NCBI GenBank assembly: GCA_039621445.1
Contig: CP154954.1
Span: forward strand, 40,727,572 to 40,791,571
From: Euglena gracilis
Lineage: Eukaryota
DNA length: 64,000 nucleotides
Direction: 5' to 3'
Each line of letters begins with the position of its first letter. Position 1 is the first letter of the stretch. The notes below the pieces were generated by a model, which was not told the DNA's origin, did not search any database, and saw only the letters and a list, made by a program, of their open reading frames with translations. The position numbers and the translations under genes were made by a program. Shown piece after piece: positions 27,978 to 37,078 of the stretch.

Positions 27978-30900
27978 ATGGCTGAACCACAGAAGGAGCC
28001 GCGGGAGTTCCTCATCGCCGCTGGGACCTGGGCATTGCCAAATGGGTCAGGGGTGCCCGCGGTGGCATTCATCTCACCGCGGTGGCATTCATCTCATTCG
28101 GTTCGCCTGCAGTGGATTTCTGAATCCGGAGCAGAACTTTGAATTTTGACATTCCGTTCAAAAAAGGCACCAAAAATTGGCTCAGCCAGCCCAGCTGGGC
28201 TGATCTGGACCCAATTTTTTTCATATGACACCTGGCTGGGAGCCAGACCTCCATTTAGTGTGTATCACCCAAATATTTTTACGTATCACATGGATCACAG
28301 CCTAAAAATTAATGTATCACAGATGCGTTGTAATACGCACTAAATGGCGGTCTGCTGGGAGCCTCTGGCCGGAAAAAAGGTGCTGGCTGGCTGGGCATCT
28401 GGGGGTAGGTCCCCCAGGACCTTTTCCAGCTGGCTGGACCGGACCCCCGGGTCCTTAAAAAATCCCGTGTTTCTCCTGTGGGCACCAAAACAAGGTTTGT
28501 GGTTCGTTTGCAAACACCAGGAAAGGTGTTGCGGTTCACATTTTTTTTGCAAACCATATTTAACTGATTGTCTGGACTAGCCAGTCATTCTTTCCCAAGA
28601 CTTGGGCTGCTCGGCAAGGGCCAGGCTGGGACGTATGACGGCTGGTTCTCAGGCTGGCTGTGGCAGGTCTGTCCCGCCAGCCATCCTTGGGGTGGGGGGG
28701 GATCAATTTCATCATCGCCATGAACTGGGCGCATTGGCTTCCCCTCTTCCATGGAGCCTGTGGAGCTTGTTGAGCTTCTCACTCAAGGCCAGAAGCTCAG
28801 ATTTCCACAGGAGGCGTTGGAACTCCTCCTCCGTTTTCGATCGCAAACGGATGGCCTGCATTGGCCTCACCCCTCAATCCCTCCGGCACACGAGCATCTG
28901 CTTGCAGCAATCGCATTGCGGGTCTCCCGCCCGAGATCCCCGGGTTCCTGGAAGGGCCGTGGCCAGCGCACCGCCGCCAAATCTGTCGGCTCGGCGGCCA
29001 ACCTTCCTGCGCCGCCCCGCAGCCGGACACCCAGGGGCTGATGGAGCGCTTCGCGGTGACGGACCACGCCGGCCCCGTCACGGCGGTCGCCGTCTGCTCC
29101 ACGTTCCTGCTCTCCGGCGGCGTCGACGAGAACATCCGGTGTGTCCGTCCGTCGTCATGTCGCCATGGCCCCAGCGGAATCCGGGGCCTGAATGGCCACC
29201 ATCCTAGCCATCGCCCCAGGCAAGAAGAGGCAAAAAAAAGTGGTGGCAAAGAGTGCTCAAAATTGAAAATTGCTGAAGGAGACCCAGAAGATTGCCAGGG
29301 GAACGCACAGAAGCACGGCGGAAAGAGCCTTGGCGAAGGTTGGTCTGTGTCGTCGACAGCAGAAGGGTGGAACCATCACAGTATTTGCATGTTTTGTACT
29401 TTAAGTTTGACCCCAAGGCACGTCGAGTCCAGTGGCAGTTGGACGTTGGTGCCGATGAAACAGTATCAAAGCAATTCTAACCAAATCAATCATCCCAACC
29501 TAAAAAAGGGTCGAGGAGCATTTTTTTTTTACGACGGTACACCCTCTGCCACTCACCTCCCGCAGGGTCTACCACGCCAAACTCTTCCGCGGGTTCGGCT
29601 TCCTCGCCCAGCACAAAGGTCCCCCCCCCCCAAACCGTACCATTGAGCACCGTTCCATTCCATGGGCCAAACAGCCTGGCACGTCCCAGCGAGGCGTGTG
29701 CCGGTCGGGTGTCCATCCTCTCGCAGCGACCATCACGTGCATGCGCTTCTCGGGGTCCACGCACCTGGCCAGCGGGGACCGCAGCGGCGTCGTCATCTTC
29801 AGCAAGTGCACCCCGAAGCGCCTGGACGAGCTCGCCACGATGCAAGTGCACAAGTCTGCCCCTGGTGTCGCAACCTGACGACCGCGAAGGAGAATTGACC
29901 AAGGGGAAAAGAAAGGCCAACCGGACAGCCCCAGACAGACGTATGGGAGAACCATTTGCAATAGCAGAGTGGAGTGAACTGAAGTTATGATTCGAAACAA
30001 AGACACAACAGATGCAACAAACCTTTCCCAGCATGTTAGATCATGCTGCCGCGTTCCCCGCTGCCCAAGTTCAACCGCTCTTCATTCGCCCGTCTGTCCA
30101 TCCTCGGCCGTGCCCACCATCTCTGTGCCAGCGTGGTGCGGACGCTTTGCCGTTGCTCCTGCCAGCGGGGCGGTCAACGACTGCGACCTCTACCCGCGGG
30201 ACCCGCTGCTCGTCCTGTCCGTCGGGGCGGACCACCTCCTCAAGGTCACCAACTTCGGCAGCCAGCGCACCGTCGACTCCCGCAAGTTCGCCGGTGCGTC
30301 GCCCCTGCCATCCCCCACCCGCCCCTCTACCCCTCTGCCCCTCTGCCCCCAAGCCCAAAGAAATGGTCTCTGACCGGGGGGGGGATTCTGTGAGAAAGAA
30401 AAGCGTGTGAGTTTGGTGTGAACCCCAAATCATTTTTGTCCGCCGTGGTATTTTTGGATATTTTTGCACTTTCGATTTTTTGAAGACCCGGTTCAACCCT
30501 GGGTCGGGCCGAGCTCCATCCCAGGACCCCAAGGGGGGGGGGTCAGCCAGCAGCCTTTTTTCCAGCCAGCAGCCAAATTGTGTGAGCCCCCAGCGCTGTT
30601 AAGCAGCCCCAGGGGGGCGACACTGGCATGGTCCGTGTGGGTTTGCCCTGACGAAGACCAGGGCCCTACCGTACCTCGGTGCCTCAGTGCCTCGATGCCT
30701 CGCCCGGCAGGTGAGCCGCTCTACTGCCGGTACTCGCTGAGTGCGAAGACCTACTGTGTGGGATTCGAACGCAAGGTCGCCGTCTACGATGCGAAGGTGC
30801 CCCCCCTCCCTGCCCGGCCCCGACGCCGGCCCTGCAAGTGCGGGAGACGTCCCCGGCCCATCAATTGGGAAGTGGAGGGGCAGGCCGGGAGATGCCCAAG

Positions 30901-33900
30901 TCCCCCCGCCAAAGTACGCAACACCCGGTGAAGCGGAACCGGCAAAGTGCAATTCCATTGAAAGCCTTTGTGGGGCATCGTTCTCACCACAATCTGCCTC
31001 CCTTCTTGATCATTTGATCCAATTGTCAGAAAATTCTGATCTCACTTACCCTCTCCCCACTCCCAGATTCGCGCAGAACCCCCAATCGCAGAGTACGTCT
31101 CAAAGGAGCTCATCCACTCGTTATCTTATATTGACGTGTGCCATTGTTGCATAACCATATGATTCGCATGTATTTATGTGTATTTTTTGTGTTTTGTTCG
31201 TTTTGTTTTTATTCAGCTCGTTTTGAACTGCCACAAATTCTGAGTCCTGAAGGCATTATTTTTTCTATTGTTATAAAATCCCTCTTTACCTCAACATTGT
31301 CACCTGAGTATGGCTGGATATGTTTTTTTCTGCAGCCTTTAACTACTGGGCCCCCCCAGGGGGTGAGGGCCCAATGGTTGAATAATGGGGGGGAGTCATT
31401 CTCTTAAACACCAGCCAGTGGGGGTTTTGATGATATTTTTCGATTTTTTCCTTGTTGTTTTTTCGGAGTCGAGTTAGTGTTATGATTATTGTTAAGAAAG
31501 GGATTATGGCCAGGTCAGAATCAGGAGGTAAGGCCAAATTCGGGCCTGAATTCGGGCCTGAATTAGGCCCAATTTTAGCTTAAATTGCTATAAAAAAAAA
31601 GCAGGCCTAAAAACCAAACCCCACCCAACTTCAAACCCTGACCCTAACCCCATCCATTTCAATTACCCCAAACCCCAATCCTATTCCGAGGCACACTGCA
31701 CTCCACTTTTGACCGGGCCACCTCCCGCGGACATGGTGAAAGCGCAGTCAAATTTGGGTCGGGGCACACCTCTTAAACGCAGAGGGGTCCGAACCCCCCT
31801 CGTTTAACTGCTTGGGGGGGGGGGCAGTCAAACGAGGTATATAGGAACTGGAGGGATTTTAATGCGTAACTCCCCCCGGGGGGTGTTAAAGGCTGGCGGG
31901 TTTTTTAAAAAAAATATGGCATGTATTGTTTTTTTAGTGTACGTAATATGTTTAGATGTTCTTGAAATGTCACCTCATCCAATATGTGAATGATAAATTA
32001 TCAATCATCTTCATTGCATGATGCATTAAATTTCACATTTACACTTTGCTGACAGATTTGCAAATGTTCAACAACCTTTTCCAGTGCTTCTCTTGAGAAG
32101 TTTTCACTGTATCGTGTGAGGAGCTTTCCACGGACCTGCTTCATTGTACTGTAGCACCTTCAACTGAGCTCTTCAAAGATCCAGGTGACTGGTTTCACGC
32201 ATCAACCCAGTTGTTTGATTAAAATTTTGTTGCAGGCGCATGGAAAATGTCAGGGGTGGTTGCGAACGTTTTTGTCAGGACCCCTGGGCGGGGGATTGTC
32301 TCCTGACAAATTGGGGTTCACGGGCGATTGATTCACCAATTGTCGGTCTATGCAATCGCAGAGGGATTACATGGTGCGTTCAACCAACTGATACGGGAGG
32401 GCTCGGGGTGACCGAGACTAACACTGCGGGGGGTATTTCCAACGTCCAGATTTTCTCGATGAGATTCTTCCATTCGGATCCGCGGGGGTTTTTTCCTGTG
32501 CAGCGCCATAGTGAGGGTTGGGTCCCCGTTGAAGTGGGGGGTACCGGTCCGCCGGGCAGCCCGGTCACCACCGCCGTGGGCGTTGCAGGACGCCATGATT
32601 GCCATCGGCTGCGACAACAAGGAGGTCCGCATCATCGACTCGCAGCGGGGCCACGTGCTCTGCACCCACGCCCACCACCTGAACCGGTGTGCGCCGCCGC
32701 AAGGGGACGGGGGGCCCTAGCAGCCCTTTGGTGACGACCCCCAGTCAGGCTTCTGCTTAAGGGATTGCAGTACCCCCCCCCCCCCCGGGGGGGGCTGGAC
32801 TGCAGCTAGTCCAAATTTGGCTAGTGGGATTTCTAGCAGACCCCCCCGGCGTGCAGCGCCGGATTAAAATTTTTTTTCCAGTTGGGGAGACCCCTGGACC
32901 CCCCCCCCCGGGGGTCTAGCTAGTCCATTTTTTTCCAGCGTCTAGCCAATTGCCTAGCCAGTACCCCCCCCCCGGGTCCTTAAGCAAAAACCTGCCCCCA
33001 GTAGAAAGCGAGGGTTCTGCAGGGCGGGGTCGGCATGGAAACAAGCGTAACTTTCAGAAATGGAGAGCTGGGAGCAGGGTTTGATATAAGGAGGGCGTAC
33101 ATGGTCTAGGTGGGGGGGTGTCCCCCCCCCCTCCTGGCCCGCAGGGGGGGTCCGGACCACCCCCCCACCTGTCCTTATATCAAACCCTGGCTGGGAGTCC
33201 GACCCTCCCACCCCCGTCCCCCCCCACACCCCTTCAGGGTGAAGGCGGTGGCCAGCGGGTACAACGGGGACCGCACGTACACCATCGCCTCCGTCGACTC
33301 CGACGGACGGTGTGTACCGCTGCTGTGGGCGGCGATGGGCATTGCTGTTTCCGGGTGGCTAGTCGGGATCTCCGACTGTGTCCCCACCCCCCAGTGCGGA
33401 GGGATGGAATGGACGTTCCCGCCCACCTCTTCCCCTTCCTCTGGGCTGAGGAGCCCTGCAGACCCCCCCCCCCGGCCCAGGCCAGCCGGTGGCAAACTTT
33501 GAGGGCCCACCCCCCTCACCCTCCAAGGCTCACCGTGGCGAAGCTCCAGCGCGAGGCCGCCGCTCCGGAGGGGCCAGTGGAAGCGGCCGGGACAGACGCG
33601 CCGCCGCCGCCGGCGGCGAAGAAGCGCCGGAAGGGGAAGGCTGCGCCGGAGGTGTCGCCCTCCCCCACGCTCGCCACCTCCCTCTCTGTGTTGGCCCGCA
33701 TTTGGTGAGGGTTGGCATACCACTGGTGTGAGAGAGGGCGGAGGGCTCACACGTTCCTGGGGCACTCATTTCACAGGCGGAGGCCACCCCTGCGGAGGCA
33801 TCGGCTGGGGCCTGGCAGCGTGACCTCAAGGGGGTCTTTGTGCCGTACGCCAGCGACGTCTCGGCCCTCATCGAGGAGGCGTACCGGTCTGGGGCATCCA

Positions 33901-34068
33901 GGTGTGTTGGCATCCCCCGGCACTGTGGGACACCTTGGGCAGCACAAGGGGGTGGGCAACGGCCCGAGGGTGGCAGGTTTGGCGGGGTGGGGGGGTTGTA
34001 AGGGATGGACGGTTGTAGGTGGGATGGGTGATATGGTGGTTACGCATTCGCTGATGTGCTTTTCAAAT

Positions 34069-34163
<95 letters not shown>

Positions 34164-35424
34164 GCCTCCAACTAAAGGGACCCCCGGGGGCCCTTCAGTT
34201 GGATCAGGGGCGGCATTTTACGTTAATGATGGAGTAGGGTTAGGGTTCCGAATTCGGCCTAATTTCAGGCCTAATTTGTACACTTAACACTAATCTATAA
34301 GTTAGGCCTAATTCTAACCCTAAGCCGTAACCCTAACCCTATTCCTTCAATAATGCCAAAAAATTTTGCCGCCCCCTGATCCAATTATATTGACCCCCCA
34401 GGGGGGGTCCCTTTAGTTGGAGGCTGCCATATATAGGTACGACACATGCCATATTTTTTATGAGCACCTGAATACTCTTATCTATGCATATTCAGGTGTT
34501 GAGGCGTTGGCAATGTTGCGGTAAAGAGGGATTTCATAATTCAATGCAATGCAAAAGTTCATGATTTCAAGACCCAGTTATGGGAGCCCATAACTGCTCG
34601 GGGAGCGGGAGTGCCCTACCTTTAAGAAAATCCCTGGTACCAACTGAAATGCTGAATGAAATGCTGATGCATACTGCACCTCCTGGAGCCTTGCCACTGC
34701 AGCCTGCAACCTCCAACATGGCTGCATAAAACCCCAGCAGGGAGGGCCAGAAGGAGAGAGACAACTAGAGGGAGTGTCGATTGACCATTAACACCATCGA
34801 CACACCCTAGGATAGGACTAACTATCTGGACCCCTTGGACGGGTCCATATCATTCTTGGCTGCCATGTACACATGGATTCATTTAACACCTGTGTGACCC
34901 TGGGGGGTTGGTGGGTTTTTGAGAGTGGGTGGGTGGGTTGGGGGCCTCTTGACCCCCCCCCCCCCCCGGGAGTGGGGTGGGGAGTGCCACGGGTCAGGTC
35001 TTGGCCCAGCCAAAGGGAGGGCCAGAGTTTTTCAAGAAGGGTTTTTAGCTGATTTTGGCTGGATTTTGGGTGGGTTGGTGGGTGGGTGGTTGACCCGGGG
35101 GGGGGGGGGTCGTGGGTTGGTTGGTTTTCGAAAAAGGGGTGGGTGGGTTTGGCCCAGGGGAAAATGCCCTCCCAGGCCACTAAGTGAATCTGTGCTCAAC
35201 TTTTGTGGACCATACCCAACCCAAACCCTAAACAACTTTTTTCCCTCCTTCCCTCCCTACCTCCCACCTTCTCAGTTTCGAGTTGCCTGACACGGGGAAA
35301 GCGCGCTTTGTCCTTGATTTCACTAAAATGACACAGTTCAGGCTCGTTCTCGTTTTTTTCCCTCCTTCATGGACAGAATAAATGGTAGCAGCCTGAACTA
35401 GCATGCTCATTCGCATACACCGCG

Positions 35425-35457
<33 letters not shown>

Positions 35458-35839
35458 GTGTGACGGACGCACGCACACCTGCACACACAGCCGGTGTGGG
35501 CTGTGTGTGTACACACATACAGAACACACAAAACAACACAGCACAGCACAGCACAACACAACACAATGCACACACACACACACACACACTCACACACATG
35601 CGCGTGCACACACACGCTCACATGCACGCACACACACTGACACACAACGTGGTGTATCACCCTTGGTGCTATGTACATTCCAGCGACAGAGGCGCCTGTC
35701 ACCAACCAATATGACAGCCAAACCCATCCGTTCTCGGGCAATTCAAAGAGTGTCCCCGCCCTCTGAATCAAAGCAGAGTCAGGTTTGCCTGTGTGTTGTT
35801 GTGTGCGTGTGTGCACACGCGCTTGTGTGTGCCTGTGGC

Positions 35840-35870
<31 letters not shown>

Positions 35871-36190
35871 GGGTGGGTGGGTGGGTGGGTGGGTGGGTGG
35901 GTGGGTGGGTGGGTGGGTGGGTGTGTGTGGGTGGGTGGGTGGGTGCTGTGTGTTTGTATGGGTGGGTGTGGGGATTTATGTCCTCTCGTCGCAAAAACAG
36001 TCCATCAGAGCGCACCTCTCCTTTTCCCCAGGGTGGGGCTCAGCAGGGGCCCCTCCGGCCCTGGCACATCACGCCGGTGAAGACCCGGAAGATCGACCTG
36101 CGCTTCACGTGTCTGGCGATGACGCTGCACAGCGGGGGCCCTCCGAAGGGGAAGCAGCAGCTGGGGAAACGAGGCCGGCCCACCGGCTGA
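27978..36190 (+). CDS. PAK1IP1: PAK1IP1/Mak11-like WD40 ribosome-biogenesis factor with inserted NLS and WWE domain (459 aa, 15 exons)
   Basis: Exons 27978-28024, 28630-28666, 29023-29138, 29566-29618, 29727-29853, 30166-30293, 30711-30796, 31067-31135, 32589-32686, 33238-33309, 33528-33651, 33777-33901, 35276-35335, 35704-35782, 36032-36190; total 1380 nt, phases consistent. Motifs collinear with PAK1IP1/Mak11 as I recall them: IAAGTYDG, DHAGPVTAVAV..FLLSGGVDENIRVY, QHKATITCMRF..THLASG, LVLSVGADHLLKV, HHLNRVKAV, IASVDSDG, DLRFTCLAM. Confidence 0.9.
28025..28629 (+). other. Intron with perfect 8-bp TSD (non-conventional reading; slides to GC-AG at 28020-28624)
   Basis: GCTGGGAC at 28020-28027 and 28625-28632; IR CTGGGCATTGCC / GGCAAGGGCCAG. 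Confidence 0.88.
32746..32994. mobile_element. hAT-like MITE with perfect 8-bp TSD
   Basis: TIR CAGGCTTCTGCTTAAGG / CCTTAAGCAAAAACCTG; TSD CCCCCAGT on both sides. Confidence 0.92.
33075..33189. mobile_element. 115-bp hAT-like MITE with perfect TIR and TSD
   Basis: TIR CAGGGTTTGATATAAGGA / TCCTTATATCAAACCCTG; TSD GCTGGGAG on both sides. Confidence 0.93.
34069..34158. repeat. (TA)n microsatellite
   Basis: Directly visible. Confidence 0.97.
34159..34429. mobile_element. MITE inserted in (TA)n, carrying telomere-like repeats
   Basis: Perfect TIR TGGCAGCCTCCAACTAAAGGGACCCCC; internal TAGGGTTAGGG and CTAACCCTAA runs. Confidence 0.9.
34872..35194. mobile_element. MITE, sibling of the intron-forming element 24360-24683, lying inside a GT-AG intron
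   Basis: CATGGATTCATTTAACACCTGTGTGACCC ... CACTAAGTGAATCTGTG; collinear interior; no clear TSD. Confidence 0.87.
35336..35703 (+). other. Intermediate intron (GT...CC) with CAG/CTG pairing
   Basis: +4 CAGGCTC pairs with GAGGCGCCTG; removal gives the WWE motif FVLDFTKMTQTNMTAKPIRSRAIQR. Confidence 0.82.
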
Positions 36191-37078
36191 CAGCCCGGCA
36201 CAATACACACCTCGGTGAGGGGCGGCGGGTGTGTGCCTGTGGCACCCCCGTACCCCACACACATATGGGTGGCACCCGCATTCCACCACCGCTGTTCTTT
36301 CCTGCCACTGCATTGCTGTCTGTGTCCACTGGTGCTGGGGCATTTCGCATTCCACAACTTTTGTGTCTCTTAACATTCACGCCTGCATCCAACCCCCCAC
36401 CGGGGGCTCCAGCTAGCATCTTTTTTTTCCCCGCCCCCTGACAAGTTCTTATCGTATCATTAACCCCCATTGACTAACCCCTTGGGGTCAGTACGATCTG
36501 GTTTGCTTGGGCTGAAGCGGAGGCGGGGGGTTAGTAATTGGGGGGGGGGGGGTTAGTTGGTCAAATCCGACCCCCCAAAATGCCCCAAAACACCCCTATG
36601 CAACGCATTTTTTGGCAGAATTCGAAAATGGCATTTTTCATGATGATTCTTGGGAACACAAAAATTGACAAAAATCAGTTTTTGGGGGTGTCTTGCAACC
36701 AAATAAATCGTCCCCGGCGTCTTTTTCATTTTTCTTCACCCGGGGAGGGGGTGGTTAGTCAGTCGTCCTTTGGTTGGTTGGCCCAAGGGGGGGTTTGTAG
36801 GTGGGGGGGGGGGGTTGGTGGGAGAAGTGGGGGGAGAGGTGAGGTTTAAACCGGGGGCCGGTGCGGGGGCCTGACAGTTTCCCCGGTGCGACCCTGACAG
36901 GTTCTCTGGCGTCACAGTTTCCCAGGAGGGTGAGGGTAGGATTGCAATCATCATTTGCACCCATTCCCAAGTCCTCCCGACCAGGGGTTTTCTCCTGGGG
37001 GGAGGGTCCCGCAGGCCGCTTCTTTTAAACTCAGACCCCCCCCCCAGTGGGTGGGTTTGGGGCCGGACCGACCCAGGG

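Follow-up and report, generated by a model that had tools for sequence, protein, structure and literature searches.

The locus considered here raises the question of what a WWE domain might be doing in the midst of a WD40 β-propeller. It lies in a stretch of 64,000 nucleotides of Euglena gracilis DNA (GCA_039621445.1, contig CP154954.1, positions 40,727,572 to 40,791,571 of the forward strand; hereafter the window, in whose numbering all coordinates are given), and an original prediction, made from the letters alone, had described part of it as a homologue of PAK1IP1/Mak11 carrying a WWE domain and a nuclear localisation signal (NLS) inside its last WD40 blade. WWE domains are known mainly from ubiquitin ligases and PARP-family proteins, which use them to recognise ADP-ribosylated targets, and the hosts named for them in PMC11269756 are E3 ligases of the RING and HECT types, PARP catalytic proteins and a few others. 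Mak11/PAK1IP1 appears among the nucleolar pre-60S 'B' factors in the table of a review (PMC10068337). A WWE domain on a propeller of the ribosome-assembly type, without an enzyme and present in two euglenid-type sequences, would place a reader directly on a pre-ribosomal factor. The best overall explanation, to which we assign a probability of roughly 0.55, is that the gene encodes a PAK1IP1/Mak11-type propeller in which a WWE domain, located in a loop of the last blade, reads an ADP-ribose-type ligand.

Judged from its spliced sequence, the locus represents a single nuclear gene of the euglenid type with 15 exons, predicted to code for a WD40 β-propeller protein of 471 residues (27978-36190, + strand; exons and the introns of special interest are compiled in Table 1). 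Much of what follows draws on a single relative, P0001, a protein of 428 residues which was the best of five proteins retrieved at E ≤0.001 when the 42 residues of exon 6 were compared by HMMER with 1.84 billion representatives (E 6.4e-8, 68% identity over the exon); the four others are multi-repeat WD40 proteins and unrelated. The source of P0001 is Logan, where a single contig of 1339 nt holds the frame of 428 codons, and because this length barely accommodates the frame, the contig is taken to be intron-less and transcript-like. A tblastn search of P0001 against the window matched every exon in colinear order, revealing in addition the 5′ exons and the small exon at 31067-31135, and the alignment of the spliced product with P0001 runs over the whole of both proteins, with 231 identities in 424 aligned positions. 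The order of the parts is the same in both proteins, namely propeller, basic patch, WWE and a conserved C-terminal segment. At 54.5% identity P0001 could be an orthologue or a paralogue, an ambiguity that has to be set against whatever is concluded from it. A word-index protein search with P0001 returned only P0001 itself among 7331 candidates, and the translations of exons 12 and 15 gave no match at E ≤1 in this type of search, a result that is silent on splicing. When the open frame surrounding exon 12 was used to scan metagenomes, the single locus found matched only the intron-derived part of the query and is irrelevant.

The WWE domain claimed originally is borne out by a Pfam match of P0001, a partial Pfam match of exon 12 of the window and matches at the level of the fold. 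Residues 311-375 of P0001 match the Pfam family WWE (PF02825) with an E value of 4.6e-9 and 37 bits (cut-off 21.1), and cover positions 5-67 of the 67 in the profile. In the window, 33777-33899 translated by itself covers positions 5-30 of the 67 (E 7.3e-4, 20.3 bits, same cut-off), and the two short exons after exon 12, each submitted alone, produced no Pfam match. Between the window and P0001, 38 of 65 WWE residues are identical, with no gap over the 65 residues. When the PDB sequences were searched with the WWE part of P0001, only the tandem WWE of Deltex was returned (E 0.0011), with both repeats aligned; a DARPin match of exon 12 in a PDB sequence search was dismissed as a repeat artefact. 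An AlphaFold2 single-sequence model of the WWE part of P0001 (predicted local distance difference test, pLDDT, 62.4) has the succession strand-strand-helix-strand-strand, the WWE fold being a half-barrel of β strands plus one helix. Its comparison with 350,542 chains by Foldseek has TRIP12, HUWE1, RNF146, DTX1 and ZAP entries in the first 15 rows listed (ranks 1-17), the best of them at E 0.012 with a template modelling (TM) score of 0.52. VIA-align, run over 48,161 chains, gave 17 at Z ≥2, the first 11 of which bear WWE domains (Z 6.1-4.0), followed by the next at Z 2.6. What the domain has in common with the WWE domains of RNF146, HUWE1, TRIP12, Deltex/DTX1-4, PARP11/14 and ZAP is the coverage of the Pfam profile, shown for P0001, and a predicted β-β-α-β-β core that matches the structures of this set first.

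Several of these results weigh against too firm a reading. The evidence from the window itself consists of one exon just below the Pfam cut-off and of the 58% identity to P0001. The confidence of the AlphaFold2 model is middling, its last 16 residues having a pLDDT <50 with the C-terminal strands unresolved; none of the 350,542 chains was matched by Foldseek at E 0.001, and Z values of 4-6 fall into a range that VIA-align itself calls common. With these reservations, we take WWE family and fold to be established for P0001, and for the window by close homology.

The distribution of conservation along the two proteins sets the domain apart from its immediate surroundings. The propeller part is 58% identical to P0001 with 3 gap columns, and the WWE likewise 58% identical with no gap column, whereas the first linker, which contains the basic patch, falls to 30% with 34 gap columns and the second linker to 28% with 2; the closing segment, 21 residues that follow the second linker, reaches 67% (14/21), again with no gap column. 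Conservation of the WWE equals that of the propeller, in contrast to the drift of its linkers, a pattern that we read as a sign of selection. The NLS-like basic patch that had been noticed upstream of the WWE is found in the window protein and in P0001 alike.

It had further been claimed that the insertion lies within the last blade and not at the end of the propeller, and ESMFold2 supports this by predicting that the chain beyond the WWE contributes propeller strands. Residues 1-283 and 385-428 of P0001 were folded as separate chains in three runs, accompanied by three controls, and the score was 0.94 in each run compared with 0.02 for the best control (pLDDT of the partner at least 71 and of chain 1-283 92; contact agreement at least 96%). 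As a yardstick, of 65 solved eukaryotic pairs that lack a similar older complex, 39 attain the mark applied here, as do 2 of 126 unrelated eukaryotic pairs. In reading this outcome one has to bear in mind that the two pieces belong to one propeller, and that the pass draws on likeness to solved WD40 folds, which is the very question asked. The contacts of least error join residues 401-404 with 275-278, i.e. the strand after ..DSDG, by ..GKLIL.., and residues 408-413 (R-F-T-C-L-T) with 10-14 of the N-terminal strand. We read the part of the chain that follows the WWE as the last strands otherwise missing, and therefore the WWE and its linkers as an insertion in the loop of the last blade; the domain is predicted by this model to sit at the rim of an otherwise intact propeller. 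The chain would leave the propeller between the third and the fourth strand of the last blade, where about 145 residues would be inserted: first a linker of low conservation that bears the basic patch, of the classical nuclear-targeting type, then the complete WWE, and finally a further linker, which is short. It would then re-enter the propeller and provide the last two strands, one of which would close the ring against the N-terminal strand. An AlphaFold2 model of the whole of P0001 made without an alignment was unusable (pLDDT 33.4).

All of this presupposes that exons 12-14, which encode the WWE, belong to the mRNA of E. gracilis. We infer this from the relative and from conservation, and the indirectness of that route counts against our reading. 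They could also be cassette exons, or lie outside the main mRNA altogether, which would leave a plain WD40 protein as the main product. Their joint omission would be in frame, since they total 264 nt, a multiple of three, and the GC content at third codon positions (GC3) is unusually low in exon 13 (0.55) and exon 14 (0.48); apart from exon 8 (31067-31135; 0.57), the other 12 exons range from 0.73 to 1.00. The low GC3 of exons 13 and 14, which flank a non-conventional intron inside the WWE, has to be booked on the same side. However, the transcript-like contig of P0001 includes the WWE with the same joins, every border has a usable signal in the right phase, and the WWE has been kept at the above identity and ungapped while the linkers around it drifted. 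We accordingly give a propeller lacking the WWE as main product hardly any weight, and regard the WWE as part of the predicted protein.

The identity of the host is less straightforward. It is a single WD40 propeller, with matches to WD40 and many β-propeller families of Pfam over P0001 8-275, and its designation as a PAK1IP1/Mak11 homologue was sustained only in part: the nearest clusters in the Atlas, which were retrieved as language-model neighbours, support it weakly, but the PDB sequences do not bring it out. With each of the two queries, six of the ten clusters listed bear the name PAK1IP1 or Mak11, with scores of 0.94-0.95 for P0001 1-285 and 0.87-0.88 for the whole of P0001, and they come from plants, fungi and chordates; such Atlas matches are leads that carry neither an alignment nor an E value, and the assignment rests only on these neighbours. 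One of the ten rows is WDR55. In the HMMER comparison of P0001 with the PDB sequences, the best 60 of 284 matches contain only generic WD40 proteins and neither Mak11 nor PAK1IP1; exon 6 alone has EED as its nearest match (5.5e-6), and PDB queries with single exons do not list Mak11 at E ≤10, their matches being otherwise generic WD40 proteins or designed repeat proteins. These searches speak against the assignment, and they are what would be expected if the host were some other, perhaps lineage-specific, WD40 protein and no PAK1IP1/Mak11 orthologue; the insertion would then still be real, but the link to the 60S subunit would fall. On the other hand, the Pfam models of specific propeller families stay far under their cut-offs on P0001 (WDR55 with 42 bits against 200, likewise THOC3, CDC20, Prp19 and others), whereas the sub-match to ANAPC4_WD40 (21.7 bits, cut-off 22.9) is one that most of the PAK1IP1/Mak11 clusters bear as well. 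Together with the six named clusters, this makes another kind of host rather improbable, and membership of the PAK1IP1/Mak11 family the probable assignment.

A single WD40 propeller of similar size is what the euglenid proteins share with human PAK1IP1 and yeast Mak11, whose clusters are also the nearest to them in the language model. They differ by the insert of 145 residues before the closing strands and by having only a short basic tail. Motifs that may be shared with human PAK1IP1 serve as a lead only, and the conserved C-terminal strand past the last repeat may correspond to that of PAK1IP1/Mak11.

The architecture was not one that the original prediction knew from other organisms, and what was found gives no sign of its being common. 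Among the PAK1IP1/Mak11 clusters of the Atlas nearest to P0001, for each of which at most three Pfam families are listed, none lists a WWE. The literature search, outside of which supplements fell, found no report linking a WWE domain with Euglena, or joining one with PAK1IP1 or Mak11. Both WWE and WD40 are known in themselves; it is their fusion, and the insertion within a blade, that was not found in the nearest clusters or in print. In comparison with known WWE domains, the host is a WD40 propeller without an enzymatic domain, and the WWE resides in a loop of a blade and does not form a separate module. We take the insertion to be real, conserved and lineage-specific.

Does the domain still bind a ligand? 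In all solved WWE complexes covered by PMC11269756, the adenine pairs with a conserved Gln and stacks with an aromatic residue, and the proximal phosphate is bound by a Tyr and an Arg, while the edges of the site, by which ligand preference varies among WWE domains, set the specificity for iso-ADP-ribose, ADP-ribose or ADP. Probable counterparts of the Gln (in T-Q-T-N) and of a C-terminal Arg (in R-A-I-x-R) are present in both euglenid-type proteins and align with l-t-q and s-i-r-r of Deltex. The first signature Trp is present, as is the Glu of I-E-E-A. In contrast to known WWE domains, the second signature Trp is replaced by Phe in the window and by Tyr in P0001, as judged from one pairwise alignment to the d-w-r-p-y of Deltex, and the aromatic residue before ..V-L-D.. 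is Phe, neither Trp nor the Tyr that Deltex has there. Because of these two substitutions full competence for the ligand is not assured, and they count against a reader. The first signature position is Trp in HUWE1 and TRIP12, and a Tyr at this place gives RNF146 its preference for iso-ADP-ribose, according to PMC11269756; in our own reading of the motif, the first Trp of the euglenid-type WWE equals the HUWE1/TRIP12 position. With Gln and Arg kept, the aromatics altered and Trp in the first position, a reader of ADP-ribose or of an ADP-type ligand would be expected in preference to a strict iso-ADP-ribose reader, a proposal for which we see about even odds.

The substitutions are equally the starting point for a different view, according to which the architecture is real but the WWE no longer reads ADP-ribose and has become a module for contacts with protein or RNA, or a structural appendage on a pre-ribosomal factor. 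It would fit with the variable ligand preference mentioned above, and also with the literature searched, which documents neither writers nor erasers of ADP-ribose in Euglena and yielded nothing relevant on PARP or PARG there, a further point against our interpretation. Conversely, both proteins have kept the Gln and the Arg, the domain is ungapped and conserved at the level of the propeller core, and Phe and Tyr might still be able to stack on adenine. We consider such a loss of reading unlikely, although less so than a different host, and retain the ADP-ribose-type reader in the blade loop as the preferred interpretation.

In functional terms, the WWE would bind an adenine-containing ligand of the ADP-ribose type. 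Candidates are a free nucleotide and ADP-ribose, poly or mono, attached to a nucleolar or ribosomal protein. Depending on the state of ADP-ribosylation, the factor would in this way be brought to pre-ribosomes, kept there or let go. A putative coupling of the WWE to 60S assembly along these lines is a tentative proposal, and to us appears less than evenly supported. To relate the protein to the fragmented large-subunit (LSU) rRNA is speculation. In its most far-reaching form, euglenids would have wired ADP-ribose signalling into early nucleolar 60S assembly, and the mark recognised by the WWE would act as a checkpoint or tether in the unusually intricate processing behind their many-piece LSU rRNA; that mark may be carried by a ribosomal protein or assembly factor, as ADP-ribose, or by pre-rRNA, as a mark that is ADP-ribose-like or adenosine-bearing. 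We regard this scenario as a long shot. If the domain did bind ADP-ribose, it would offer a handle on the control of ribosome production by ADP-ribosylation in a deep-branching eukaryote, and knock-ins work in Euglena (PMC12501133).

The gene model as such deserves some comment. The surrounding DNA is GC-rich (55%) and contains microsatellites, with the gene itself broken into many short exons; these sum to 1416 nt, or 471 codons with no internal stop, and 11 of the 14 introns are GT-AG with correct phase. The four peptides quoted originally are present on the + strand at the places given for them and fall into one reading frame once spliced, and the limits assigned to that region, 33528 and 36190, prove to be the first exon base after an AG acceptor and the last base of the TGA stop. 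A product of 459 residues had been announced, in place of which the model gives 471: two 5′ exons (27978-28024 and 28630-28666) are additions to the first reading and both contribute to the longer product, and the small exon 31067-31135, a member of the present model, may already have been part of the shorter one. Two joins had to be corrected. At ..ARIW|AEAT.. (33705/33706) there is no GT, and the join would need a non-GT donor; the GT at 33705, tried as donor of exon 11, was rejected: being out of frame, it leads to a stop as early as codon 397. The most probable end of exon 11 is 33687, with the in-frame GT donor at 33688, and this is the less certain border of the predicted gene, which P0001 does not settle because the linker is not conserved. 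The second join, ..MTQ|TNM.. inside the WWE, is not GT-AG and belongs to the non-conventional intron 35336-35703; a GT-AG alternative (35346-35683) is in frame, but would add ten residues absent from P0001 and was discarded. A Pfam scan of eight long open frames elsewhere in the window yielded no family.

The code of Euglena non-conventional introns, defined with the help of knock-ins in 2025, is given as 5′-N3-CDG ... CH'G-N5-6 followed by an exon starting with a purine, CDG and CHG being complementary (PMC12501133). All three introns of the gene that are not GT-AG (28025-28629, 29859-30170 and 35336-35703) fit this code, each at exactly one position, as compared with none of the 11 GT-AG introns and 473 of 200,000 pairs of positions drawn at random from the window. 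Intron 5 departs from it insofar as its downstream exon starts with C and not with a purine; its join gives H-K-S-A-V-N-D, colinear with H-A-G-A-V-H-D in P0001. Intron 13 fits exactly and splits the Gln codon CA|A (35334-35335 + 35704), and its removal restores T-Q-T-N, the same as in P0001. Removal of the three non-conventional introns from the transcript is predicted and is supported by colinearity with P0001. With 3 of its 14 introns fitting the code the gene resembles what is known for Euglena, its peculiarities being that the codon for the ligand-contact Gln in the WWE is interrupted by one of them and that one is followed by an exon with an initial pyrimidine. It may serve as a worked example in which the published code predicts exon joins that are verified by homology, one of them through a functionally critical codon. 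A direct repeat of eight bases (GCTGGGAC) is present at both ends of intron 1 (28017-28032, 28622-28637), making it slidable over nine positions; slidability of this kind is reported for most Euglena introns in PMC12501133.

Table 1. Exons and non-conventional introns of the predicted gene, in coordinates of the window (HSP, high-scoring segment pair).
Feature	Coordinates	Strand	Description and evidence
Exon 1	27978..28024	+	ATG at 27978, N-terminal propeller strand begins; tblastn HSP to P0001 2-15
Intron 1	28025..28629	+	Non-conventional, GAC-CTG ... CAG-GCTGG / G; slidable over direct repeat
Exon 2	28630..28666	+	tblastn HSP to P0001 12-25, E 0.001; GT donor next
Exon 3 (WD40)	29023..29138	+	tblastn, 75% identity to P0001 25-64; AG/GT borders
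Exon 4 (WD40)	29566..29618	+	tblastn; GT-AG borders and phase
Exon 5 (WD40)	29727..29858	+	tblastn match to P0001
Intron 5	29859..30170	+	Non-conventional, CCC-CTG ... CAG-CGGGG / C; slidable by 1 base
Exon 6 (WD40)	30171..30293	+	68% identity to P0001 125-165, E 6.4e-8
Exon 7 (WD40)	30711..30796	+	tblastn; GT-AG
Exon 8 (WD40, small)	31067..31135	+	tblastn to P0001 193-218, E 0.027, colinear; AG acceptor, GTGTGC donor, phase 0
Exon 9 (WD40)	32589..32686	+	tblastn, 57% identity
Exon 10 (last blade, strands up to ..SVDSDGR)	33238..33309	+	tblastn; GT-AG
Exon 11	33528..33687	+	Strand LTVAKL, then low-complexity linker with basic patch KKRRKGK (33619-33639); 3′ border, at in-frame GT donor 33688, less certain
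Exon 12	33777..33901	+	End of linker and first part of WWE (WWE start 33813)
Exon 13	35276..35335	+	Middle part of WWE, ..FELPDTGKARFVLDFTKMT and CA of Gln codon; tblastn to P0001 340-363
Intron 13	35336..35703	+	Non-conventional, GTT-CAG ... CTG-TCACC / A; not slidable; inside WWE
Exon 14	35704..35782	+	Last part of WWE (to 35749) and start of second linker; tblastn to P0001 358-381
Exon 15	36032..36190	+	Second linker, closing segment PWHITPVKTRKIDLRFTCLAM (36059-36121), basic tail, TGA 36188-36190; tblastn, 50% identity

The introns show some further features. Intron 4 (29619-29726, 108 nt) contains no stop and continues the frame of the exons on either side, so that a transcript retaining it would encode 36 more residues. 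Intron 12 harbours an element (34153-34435) at the edge of a long (TA)n tract; it is bounded by perfect terminal inverted repeats of 33 nt (34153-34185 and 34403-34435), which enclose a core of 217 nt with an inner imperfect palindrome of 65 nt and telomere-like TTAGGG/CCCTAA runs; it looks like a small element of the miniature inverted-repeat transposable element (MITE) type. Introns 13 and 14 are filled with long (CA)n/(ACAC) and (GGGT)n microsatellites (35400-35640 and 35800-35950). Palindromic stretches with runs of G and C (e.g. GGGGGGGTGTCCCCCCCC ... GGACCACCCCCCC) recur in introns 8 and 9 (33100-33180, 32760-32990), and with similar ones present downstream of the gene (36520-36800), they possibly represent one dispersed repeat family.

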